Assembly: GCA_963714975.1 (NCBI GenBank)
Contig: CAVQQD010000002.1
Span: 256,001-320,000 of the forward strand
Length of the DNA: 64,000 nucleotides
Origin: an uncultured Gammaproteobacteria bacterium
GTDB taxonomy: Bacteria > Pseudomonadota > Gammaproteobacteria > JAURND01
Direction of reading: 5' to 3'
A program made the translations under genes and the position numbers. The notes beneath the pieces were generated by a model that saw only the letters and a program-made list of their open reading frames with translations, did not search any database and was not told where the DNA came from. Positions 11,036 to 63,649 of the stretch are shown here, piece by piece (the first letter of the stretch is position 1; every line of letters starts with the position of its first letter).

Positions 11036-11080
11036 TTGACAATTTCAAACGTAACCATTCAGCATCTTTTTGCGTAAAAA

Positions 11081-11200
11081 TCCTTCTCCCCTTGTGGGAG
11101 AAGGTGCCCGAAAGGGCGGACAAGGGGTAAGCTTGAAACCAGCAAGGAGCATTTTATTAGCTAAATGCTCATTGCTGCTTACCCCTCACCCGCGCGCCTT
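11081..11200 (+). repeat. REP-doublet (REPIN/MITE-like) element, truncated copy
   Basis: Near-identical to 25568-25720 and to the reverse complement of 39575-39728, including the internal spacer. Confidence 0.85.
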
Positions 11201-11223
11201 GGGGGTAGGGGGGGTTAAAAGGG

Positions 11224-11358
11224 TCAGCAGCTACCAACCAATAAAATAGTGATAGTCATACCAAAGTTTTTTATTTTTGTCAGGGTATCAACGAGGGGAG
11301 GGCGATGCCCTGGTTGACGAAAGCATTTAAAGGGGATGTTAATGTTATTATCATTCAT
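11224..11358 (-). CDS. Small 44-aa ORF downstream of cassette copy 1 (possibly a remnant)
   Basis: SD aggag then MNDNNINIPFKCFRQPGHRPPLVDTLTKIKNFGMTITILLVGSC*. Confidence 0.3.
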   Translation of the reverse strand: MNDNNINIPFKCFRQPGHRPPLVDTLTKIKNFGMTITILLVGSC

Positions 11359-62449: not shown

Positions 62450-62596
62450 AATTTACAACTTCAAGTTAAAGTATATCCTTGAAGGATGTGAACATGCAAT
62501 CCTTCTAAATTAATTGAGCTCATACAAGAAAGTTTATCTGATAACTCACAGGAGAACGTTATGACCATTGCGCAACAATTTAGGGAACAGGGGCTC
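62450..62596 (+). pseudogene. Rpn/YhgA-like C-terminal remnant
   Basis: ...KYILE...(fs)LIELIQESLSDNSQENVMTIAQQFREQG, cut by a REP. Confidence 0.6.
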
Positions 62597-62601
62597 ATCT
62601 G

Positions 62602-62644
62602 TTTAAATCCCCCTTAATCCCCTTTGTCAAAGGGGGGAAATTAT
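62602..62644 (-). repeat. CCCCCTTT..AAAGGGGG-family REP
   Basis: Near reverse complement of 27723-27765. Confidence 0.82.
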
Positions 62645-62709
62645 TTTTATCCCTTACAGAGGAATCAATTCTTATTGAAACTTGTCGTAAGCTTTTTTTA
62701 AGAAAATGT

Positions 62710-62738
62710 TTGCATTTAACCAAAAGCCGTTGAATAAT
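62710..62738 (+). promoter_or_regulatory. Sense promoter of cassette copy 2
   Basis: TTGCAT-N17-AATAAT. Confidence 0.6.
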
Positions 62739-62741
62739 ACT

Positions 62742-62846
62742 GAAACCTCAGATGCTCACGCACCTGAGGCCGCGCCCTACAGATGGTGACACATCTGCGA
62801 GGGTACTTCCATAACCCCAACCTTTCTGGAGGTCGGCAGCCATGAC
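62742..62846 (-). ncRNA. Predicted cis-antisense RNA, copy 2
   Basis: On the minus strand: GGCCTCAGGTGC-GTGA-GCATCTGAGGTTT (G-U pairs, GNRA loop) and CCCT.GCAGATG-tgtcac-CATCTGTAGGG; ends approximate. Confidence 0.58.
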
Positions 62847-63066
62847 CTATTTAGCTTACTTCATTACGCGTTGGCGTAGAACTCTTTTCTGTAGGTTTGT
62901 CACATTTTTTTACCTGCTGTTATTCAGGCGGCTTTGCTGCGCTTGGATAAACAGGCTTTTACCTTATATACACTCCTCTCGTGTCCGCGCTGTGTTATGG
63001 AACTGGATAGGAGCTTGTGGCAGGTTTTTTGGTGACATTCATTCATTACAAGAGGGTAGGCAGTAG
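62842..63066 (+). CDS. Small Cys/aromatic-rich protein, paralog of 11488-11715
   Basis: SD GGAGGT at 62828-62833; ungapped alignment to copy 1. Confidence 0.72.
   Translation: MTYLAYFITRWRRTLFCRFVTFFYLLLFRRLCCAWINRLLPYIHSSRVRAVLWNWIGACGRFFGDIHSLQEGRQ
62853..62881 (-). promoter_or_regulatory. Antisense sigma70-like promoter inside the small ORF
   Basis: TTCTAC-N17-TAAGCT. Confidence 0.6.
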
Positions 63067-63162
63067 CAGAGGAGTGAGGTATGGCGAAGGGTCCCTGTAT
63101 CCTGCAGGGATGACGAGAAATTGTCTCTTCGCCATTACCTACTAAACCTCTGCACTGCCTAC
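63056..63162 (+). other. Long 3' hairpin of cassette copy 2
   Basis: GTAGGCAGT.GCAGAGG..AGGTATGGCGAAG pairs with CTTCGCCA.TACCT..CCTCTGC.ACTGCCTAC, followed by ATTTTT. Confidence 0.72.
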
Positions 63163-63226
63163 ATTTTTCATGTTGATTACCCAACACTTTCAGAAAATCA
63201 AATTCAATCATTTCTCGGAGAATTTT

Positions 63227-63649
63227 ATGACACAACAATCACAAACTATTCCTGTCGCACGTATTTTAGTAACAGAAGACAACCGAATGGCCGCAAAAGC
63301 CGCACAAGGTTTGTTCAAAGATAAAAATTGCCACGTCGTTGTAGAAGGTTGCGCTAATGCAACACTCGAACATTTACAGGATCACTTCGACCTGCTGGTG
63401 GTCGACCTAGGTCTTCCGGATTTTAGTGGCCTTATTCTTGCGGAGAAAATTCGCAACTCTGGTGCTCCACTTGCAACTGCCCCGATTGTGATTTTAACCG
63501 CCCATGGCGATGAAACGCATAAAACCCAAGCTAAAAAATTGGGATTAAATGGATTTTTGCAGAAACCCTTAACCTCTGCATTATGCGATAGATTGTTGTG
63601 GCGTTTTGTGCGTATGCCTGTCGATAAAAATTATTTTCTTGAGAATTAG
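63227..63649 (+). CDS. Single-domain response regulator
   Basis: ILVTEDN, VVDLGLPD, ILTAH, KPL; SD ggag before ATG 63227. Confidence 0.88.
   Translation: MTQQSQTIPVARILVTEDNRMAAKAAQGLFKDKNCHVVVEGCANATLEHLQDHFDLLVVDLGLPDFSGLILAEKIRNSGAPLATAPIVILTAHGDETHKTQAKKLGLNGFLQKPLTSALCDRLLWRFVRMPVDKNYFLEN

Follow-up and report, generated by a model that had tools for sequence, protein, structure and literature searches.

Translated leaders, as a general kind, are already known in bacteria. The trp, pyrBI and ermC leaders are frames of 14-44 codons that contain regulatory codons or encode stalling peptides; they work through a terminator or a single helix that masks a Shine-Dalgarno (SD) sequence. In hok/mok/sok loci, which occur in several copies per genome, the mRNA is highly folded with a sequestered SD, and it is the translation of the ~70-codon mok frame that matters, not its product. 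Here we describe an element found twice in a 64,000-nucleotide stretch (the window) of the genome of an uncultured Gammaproteobacteria bacterium (assembly GCA_963714975.1, contig CAVQQD010000002.1, positions 256,001 to 320,000). The family it belongs to is itself undescribed. Our preferred interpretation, to which we give about an even chance, is that the element is a translated cis-regulatory leader, forming a promoter-plus-leader module of ~380-500 nt. It is unusual in that a frame of ~70 codons, free of constraint on phase or sequence, runs over a conserved multi-helix fold, and also in the position of its stop codon, bridged by a hairpin to the next gene, in its copy number and in its link to a signalling regulon.

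As in the trp, pyrBI and ermC leaders, the position of the ribosome would choose among pairings, and the competition of a mid-ORF motif with a 3' hairpin arm resembles their 1:2 versus 2:3 choice; unlike them, this element has no conserved codons, a much longer open reading frame (ORF), and modest evidence for alternative pairing. Unlike hok/mok/sok, it has no toxin frame or hydrophobic peptide and, in a consensus scan, just weak antisense promoter-like sites, and it serves a response regulator, a cyclodipeptide synthase (CDPS) operon, a DUF3050 gene or CsrA. In Escherichia coli, CsrA represses a short ORF upstream of iraD, and translation of iraD depends on that ORF by coupling (Park et al. 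2017, PMC5574718). That leader is similarly long, with the downstream SD held in RNA structure, and the regulator acts at the initiation region of a leader ORF whose translation is needed for that of the downstream gene. The iraD leader ORF is short, with a stop overlapping the iraD start, whereas here 61-79 codons run over a covarying fold and the stop lies 90-330 nt away across a hairpin; and CsrA binding is known for iraD but is only a candidate here. The Bacillus subtilis bmrB frame, leader of bmrCD, acts by ribosome-mediated attenuation through a long leader ORF with alternative stem-loops (Reilman et al. 2014, PMC4191407). It is a likewise unusually long ORF with internal stem-loops, the translation of which is needed for downstream expression. 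It works through an intrinsic terminator within the ORF and responds to ribosome-targeting antibiotics, whereas the present element lacks a regular terminator, belongs to Gammaproteobacteria, is multi-copy and heads signalling genes.

The two copies in the window lie on opposite strands, copy A at 62698-63153 (+) and copy B at 11852-11411 (-; C2:267852-267411). They align at 75% mean column identity and share the order of parts that the first-pass annotation, made from the sequence alone, had described for both: promoter, hairpin P1, CCGCGCC, hairpin P2, a small hairpin holding the SD, an ATG or GTG start, the ORF, TAG followed by CAGAGGA, and a hairpin of ~100 nt. The predicted promoter, found by scanning, has the -35 sequence TTGCAT in one copy and TTGCTT in the other, 17 nt, then -10 AATAAT in both. 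The ORFs have 74 codons in copy A and 75 in copy B, and the annotation's estimate that they agree at about one third of positions holds, the peptides being 35% identical. In copy A the promoter occupies 62710..62739 (+), with -35 at 62710-62715 and -10 at 62733-62738; P1 (CCTCAG...CTGAGG), a hairpin missing from subfamilies 2 and 3, follows at 62746..62769 (+). The corresponding parts of copy B, on the minus strand, are the promoter at 11840-11813, P1 at 11803-11785, CCGCGCC at 11784-11778, the small ORF at 11715-11488 (75 codons, GTG start, TAG stop) and the long hairpin at about 11497-11405.

The annotation had called the cassette twice-occurring, which is correct for the window. Across the whole 2.56-Mb source genome (G000), iterated nhmmer searches returned 33 matches; the 25 that span the whole model are counted as full copies and the other 8 as partial. 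BLAST located the element at 21 places in the same genome. Members of one subfamily class are ~440-500 nt long, and those of another ~380 nt. A covariance model built on a 125-nt core of the element found 19 more copies when run on eight other genomes belonging to the same family and order. Five of these carry the copies; the three without a match are 95%, 63% and 63% complete. Of 149 other genomes, drawn from across the class, just one (G093, from another family-level lineage) had matches to the model, 2 in number, and a second genome of the order of G093 had none. The family distribution rests on 9 + 151 + 2 genomes. When 40 relatives were searched by BLAST with copy A, nothing matched beyond the source genome, and searches of plasmid and phage collections gave no match to the element. 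No Rfam family matched anywhere in the window at gathering thresholds; with E-values up to 10 admitted, the only matches were chance-level ones to RydC and IMES-1 (best E 4.1 and 9.1). Searches of full-text literature, with supplementary files outside their reach, found no description of the element. A profile of the leader peptide, run against 5.8 billion proteins, had only 10 matches.

The reading frame of the leader is kept open while its peptide drifts. The aligned ATG or GTG is preceded, at a distance of 5-9 nt, by a strong SD (GGAGG or GGAGA); in copy A this SD is GGAGG at 62828-62832 (+), ahead of an ORF of 74 codons plus TAG at 62842..63066 (+). The ORF runs for 61-79 codons in 41 of the 48 model matches. 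The seven exceptions are five truncated or partial elements, one frameshift (L006) and one nonsense change (L028). Each of the remaining five frames contains about 3-4 stops per copy. Stop polymorphism was counted among 40 full-length sequences that form 11 groups of closely related copies, picked irrespective of the status of the frame. Polymorphic stop sites number 8 in the ORF frame, most of them displacements of the natural stop over a few codons and the rest the L006 frameshift and the L028 nonsense change, compared with 49 and 43 in the other two forward frames, which have another 14 fixed sites each.

Constraint on the peptide is not apparent by any of several measures. Unique variants fall on codon positions 1, 2 and 3 of the leader ORF 128, 129 and 132 times (chi-square p 0.97), whereas the downstream genes of the same loci have 345, 256 and 710 (p 3e-58). 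Nucleotide identity exceeds amino-acid identity in all 39 comparable pairs. The phase in which the middle of the element is read in subfamily 1b differs from that in 1a, 1c and 1d, by way of compensating one-base indels, and the best-conserved nucleotides, P3 with the adjoining AAAAC-CUUUU tract, are read in another phase in subfamilies 2 and 3 and in two groups from other genera, giving "AQNSF" in place of "RKTLFC". Only three columns are invariant in 28 aligned peptides, none beyond residues forced by RNA motifs, and Pfam has no match for the peptides. Mean Kyte-Doolittle hydropathy reaches at least 1.6 over 19 residues in 4 of 44 peptides (median 1.17), with no conserved membrane segment. 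Because stops are rare in the ORF frame, variants are spread evenly over codon positions and phase differs by subfamily, selection, in these sequence comparisons, acts on translation, through the open frame, and not on the peptide sequence. The amino-acid identities between copies A and B are accordingly a by-product of nucleotide conservation. The nucleotides are constrained, and the leader evolves more slowly than neighbouring third codon positions: in subfamily 1b there are 76 variants in 225 leader columns, while the gene next to the leader has 128 in its 126 third codon positions, and a group from genomes G002 and G003 has 42 in 207 leader columns and 223 in 254 third positions. A separate observation concerns L031:334-1170 (source genome, C2:714781 onward), a partial copy comprising only the 5' half of the element, which is fused in frame to an ORF of 278 codons; here an ordinary gene has co-opted the SD and start codon of the leader as its own start.

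What is conserved instead is an RNA fold. The minimum free energies of copies A and B lie at z -8.4 and -5.4 relative to dinucleotide shuffles, with none of 100 shuffles equally stable. From the 25 full copies, aligned with MAFFT and not fitted to any structure, RNAalifold predicts five helices, two of them within the ORF; the paired fraction of cells in these helices is 90.4%, and it falls to 75.5% on shuffling of columns and to 40-51% on sliding of the partners. Stem sequences that differ between copies while pairing is kept, as the annotation had reported from two copies, prove to be general: compensatory changes occur in 27 of the 31 pairs and none of 500 shuffles equals that, although such shuffle controls overstate significance because paralogs are not independent. 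In a second alignment of 51 sequences from 7 genomes, this one fitted to the covariance model, P2, the SD hairpin and P3 have 91.9% of cells paired (73.7% when shuffled) and compensatory changes in 15 of 16 pairs, the structure here, like the five-helix one, having been derived from the same sequences on which the pairs were counted. When ten sequence groups from five genomes were each run separately through RNAalifold, mostly the same set of helices was recovered.

Taken from 5' to 3' in copy A, the covarying parts begin with a near-invariant CGC in a GCGC motif and hairpin P2 (together 62770..62804, +), whose outer helix pairs 62774-62778 with 62800-62804 and whose inner helix pairs 62780-62785 with 62792-62797. 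All eight modelled pairs of P2 show compensatory changes across the 51 sequences, with 92-95% of cells paired. A C/A-rich linker (CACTTCCA..CCCCA) and the small ACCT/AGGT hairpin with the SD of the ORF follow at 62805..62841 (+). This hairpin has compensatory changes in three of four pairs, 90.7% of cells paired, and the variants ACCU/AGGU, AUCU/AGAU and CUC/GAG. An ACUUCC sequence considered as an anti-SD of the leader ORF was rejected on inspection by eye; it is unchanged where the SD changes (subfamilies 2 and 3). P3 (62864..62879, +) lies inside the reading frame, in codons 8-13, with compensatory changes in four of four pairs, and is followed by the conserved AAAAC-CUUUU tract. Near-invariant single-stranded nucleotides link these three covarying helices and are conserved across genera whatever the reading phase. 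Farther into the ORF, a 10-bp helix (62954..63015, +; 62954-62963 with 63006-63015) has compensatory changes in all ten pairs and encloses a pyrimidine motif, ACTCCTCTC, at 62972-62980 (+), predicted to be single-stranded. Helix 5, in the long terminal hairpin (63056..63162, +), has them in six of eight.

The stop codon and the terminal hairpin keep a fixed relation. When the sequence from the ORF end to the next start was folded, all 33 copies had the stop within the 5' arm of the terminal hairpin or abutting it. A conserved purine tract (CAGAGG, CAGAAGG, GGCAAAGG and others) comes directly after it; in copy A the stop at 63064-63066 and the purine tract CAGAGGAG are both within the 5' arm (+). 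In 28 of 32 minimum-energy folds, half or more of the downstream SD is paired, a count made without a control, and in most the partner of the SD is the segment just 3' of the 3' arm. With the stop in the base of the hairpin and this pairing just after the 3' arm, the hairpin in these folding models sets the termination site beside the downstream initiation site, although 90-330 nt of sequence separate leader stop and next start. After the long hairpin no regular U-tract was found, which argues against transcription termination there; terminator scans flag only P3, and weakly. Palindromic repeats of ~70-110 nt are inserted at the apical loop of the terminal hairpin in L016:1386-1889, L014, L012 and L008. 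The inserts leave the base of the hairpin undisturbed, which suggests that only the lower stem matters. In L023 and L024, palindromic repeats lie between the hairpin and the receiver gene.

Every full copy in the source genome heads a co-oriented gene, -3 to 182 nt away, or an operon. Behind copy A is a single-domain response regulator of 140 aa (63217..63649, +; SD GGAG at 63217-63220, ATG at 63227; PF00072, E 2.4e-18). A receiver HMM picks out 22 single-domain response regulators, paralogs of one expanded clade that includes the gene behind copy A, as a distinct high-scoring group in the genome, and the element is upstream, on the same strand, of all 22, while none of the other receivers has it. 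In 18 cases the distance is -3 to 182 nt; the remaining four receivers are 1.6-2.2 kb behind the element, with operon genes filling the gap for three. Sequence conservation continues into the downstream ribosome-binding site. At the other end of the element, all 25 full copies have a promoter-like site at one shared position of the alignment. A direct repeat, (A/T)TAA(G/A)-N6-TTAA(G/A), with an 11-bp period, was recognised by eye 5' of the -35 in most copies and in other genomes. In copy A it reads GTAAGC ... TTAAGA, lies just 5' of the -35 at 62687..62703 (+), and is a candidate activator site. The repeat, with its period of one helical turn, suggests the site of a common, activator-like transcription factor.

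Four copies head a cassette of element, cyclodipeptide synthase, membrane PAS histidine kinase, receiver and small uncharacterised protein; in one of the four the synthase gene is broken. The best solved relative of the synthase is 5OCD (E 6.5e-53), and the kinase has PQ-loop, PAS, HisKA and HATPase domains. Because several orphan receivers retain a remnant of the synthase N-terminus (NKIKPVFKYD-like), preceding or fused to the receiver, many of the 22 receivers look in sequence like deletion derivatives of a synthase/kinase/receiver operon. Divergent from the cassette we examined, at L068:283-2106 (-), is a gene for a 608-aa protein with formyltransferase N, formyltransferase C and condensation-like domains, which may tailor or use the cyclodipeptide. 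ORFs of about 600-700 aa are divergent from the other three cassettes, and for three of the four copies sequence similarity extends beyond the upstream end of the element. DUF3050 genes follow 10 of the 19 elements found in the other genomes (3 recognised by Pfam, all 10 by phmmer); this type of gene is absent from the source genome. A further element precedes a deaminase-like gene and several precede uncharacterised genes. One element of G093 precedes a paralog of CsrA (PF02599, E 4.9e-21).

These results can be put together as follows. The leader ORF has its own SD and start and lies 5' of, and co-oriented with, the next gene, which is the arrangement expected of translational coupling. The 5' hairpins, together with some factor or signal, would gate initiation at the leader ORF. 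A translating ribosome would then unwind the structured body of the ORF, including the pyrimidine motif that may pair with the purine tract after the stop. It would terminate in the base of the terminal hairpin, where the fold would bring the stop beside the downstream ribosome-binding site, and downstream translation would in this way be coupled to that of the leader. Transit and termination of the ribosome would remodel the 3' domain and so set the translation of the downstream signalling gene. We infer here transcription from the promoter, translation, coupling, the direction of control (on or off) and the input signal. The annotation's alternative, a leader-peptide attenuator for the downstream gene, survives in part: a translated leader linked to the ribosome-binding site of the next gene is broadly supported, while transcription attenuation by a leader peptide is not. 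A classical attenuator of that kind was rejected, there being no runs of regulatory codons, no regular U-tract on the big hairpin and no conserved phase.

Several points weigh against a translated cis-regulatory leader, among them the dependence among paralogs and the shared origin of structures and counts given above with the covariation. The promoter, the transcript ends and translation are predictions only. Pairing of the downstream SD is low (0.25) in 4 of the 32 folds, some automatically chosen starts possibly being wrong. The motif-to-tract complementarity depends on how it is measured: in narrow windows the mid-ORF motif binds the post-stop tract of its own lineage at -13.97 kcal/mol and those of other lineages at -11.85 (permutation p 0.003), but scored by longest helix the same complementarity has p 0.065, and with 80-nt windows the result is null (-21.0 on the diagonal, -20.8 off it, p 0.37). 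A motif so paired would be a rival of the 3' arm, in the manner of classical attenuators, and the evidence for this pairing is modest; the terminal hairpin may be so stable that the weaker mid-ORF pairing never competes. L039 and L059 have no obvious downstream gene within 600 nt. In G093, the ORF from the conserved start, translated by eye, has only about 32-33 codons. At L065:55-666 of this genome, where the leader core precedes the CsrA paralog, a second frame has 60 codons in another phase and ends at the base of the hairpin, an arrangement that could reflect a frameshift or an assembly error.

Other explanations were weighed against the same evidence. One of them is compatible with a translated leader and adds the nature of its input: a riboswitch-type leader that senses a ligand or protein, in which the 5' core (GCGC, P2, the CAC..CCACAA linker, SD hairpin, start, P3 and AAAAC) is an aptamer or platform and the ORF the read-out, with the cyclodipeptide, CsrA or a phosphorylated receiver as candidate inputs. 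The near-invariant single-stranded nucleotides between three covarying helices, kept across genera, speak for it, as do the inclusion of SD and start codon within the conserved core and the nature of the genes served, which make or transmit small-molecule signals (CDPS, PAS kinase and receivers, DUF3050, CsrA). Control by CsrA through a coupled upstream ORF has a published precedent in iraD (PMC5574718). Yet no known riboswitch or protein-binding RNA family in Rfam matches, and subfamily 1b has, by eye, only one GGA-type site, at the SD, which misfits a two-site CsrA target; we hold this explanation to be doubtful. We are similarly tentative about a more ambitious proposal, that the element is a riboregulator read by the ribosome, a conserved fold of ~400 nt with a frame free of sequence constraint that serves as common sensor and expression module of a signalling regulon, its 5' core directly binding the signal of the regulon (for example the cyclodipeptide) or a phosphorylated receiver. 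If this were true, response regulators without an output domain would gain an RNA target, explaining how such receivers regulate. A further possibility, on which we would place little weight, is an independent, trans-acting structured RNA, a dual-function or coding small RNA whose copies are regulators or sponges and whose ORF is kept open for RNA protection or avoidance of polarity. Its own strong predicted promoter, very stable fold, copy number, purifying selection on nucleotides and not on the peptide, and the few elements with no obvious downstream gene would all suit such an RNA; the absence of a regular terminator after the hairpin, the co-oriented gene or operon behind each full copy of the source genome, and conservation reaching the downstream ribosome-binding site would not.

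The remaining explanations have still less in their favour. The frame could encode a real, fast-evolving small protein, a signal pro-peptide or receiver partner, on a structured mRNA, given that it is open with a good SD in 41 of the 48 matches, that it is located in signalling operons, fast divergence being common among small signalling peptides, and that gene callers of public databases have predicted 10 such proteins. The lack of any third-position excess, the different reading phases of the subfamilies over the same conserved nucleotides, the three invariant columns in 28 sequences and the absence of a Pfam match make this improbable. The type I toxin-antitoxin (TA) locus that the annotation had proposed fares worse. 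It would agree with the structure of the mRNA, in which the SD is sequestered, with the small size of the ORF and with the large number of copies in a genome, and the mok frame of hok/sok, of roughly 70 codons, is translated only to drive the next frame. Against it are the absence of amino-acid selection, the phase shifts among subfamilies, the few peptides that reach the hydropathy threshold, with no conserved membrane segment, and the constant association of the element with a regulator gene 3' of it; sites that resemble promoters on the antisense strand are weak, by consensus scan only, and fall in two clusters (13 and 9 among 25 copies), one of which mirrors the sense -10. We take this proposal to be largely refuted and very unlikely. 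A mobile repeat (an end of an insertion sequence or a miniature inverted-repeat transposable element) or a neutral relic of gene duplication is likewise largely refuted, with a slimmer chance still. The element is dispersed and multi-copy, and palindromic repeats are inserted at some hairpin tips, but it has no conserved terminal inverted repeats (the one 12-nt pair of copy A is not in copy B, by eye) and no plasmid or phage match, it is conserved and covaries from genus to genus, it evolves more slowly than synonymous sites do, and it duplicates together with its gene.

The element bears on how bacterial upstream ORFs work, and it marks a regulon that links CDPS-kinase cassettes, the striking expansion to 22 receivers, DUF3050 enzymes and a CsrA paralog, giving a handle on an uncharacterised signalling system. 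The family adds a well-supported structured RNA, among the larger cis-leaders, in poorly known uncultured Gammaproteobacteria. It also offers a clean natural case of a frame selected only for openness, which bears on the annotation of small ORFs, where such frames resemble genes.

The repeat between copies A and B extends past the leader into the downstream gene. The response-regulator paralog is intact after A (63227-63649) and truncated after B (11358-11224), where it ends after 44 residues from the ATG at 11358 (11224..11358, -) and is followed by palindromic repeats. The N-terminus of this truncated receiver matches intact paralogs behind other subfamily-1b copies. GC-rich palindromic repeats (for example CCCCTTTGTCAAAGGGGGG) are present on the flanks of both copies, at 11040-11250 and 62585-62640 of the window.

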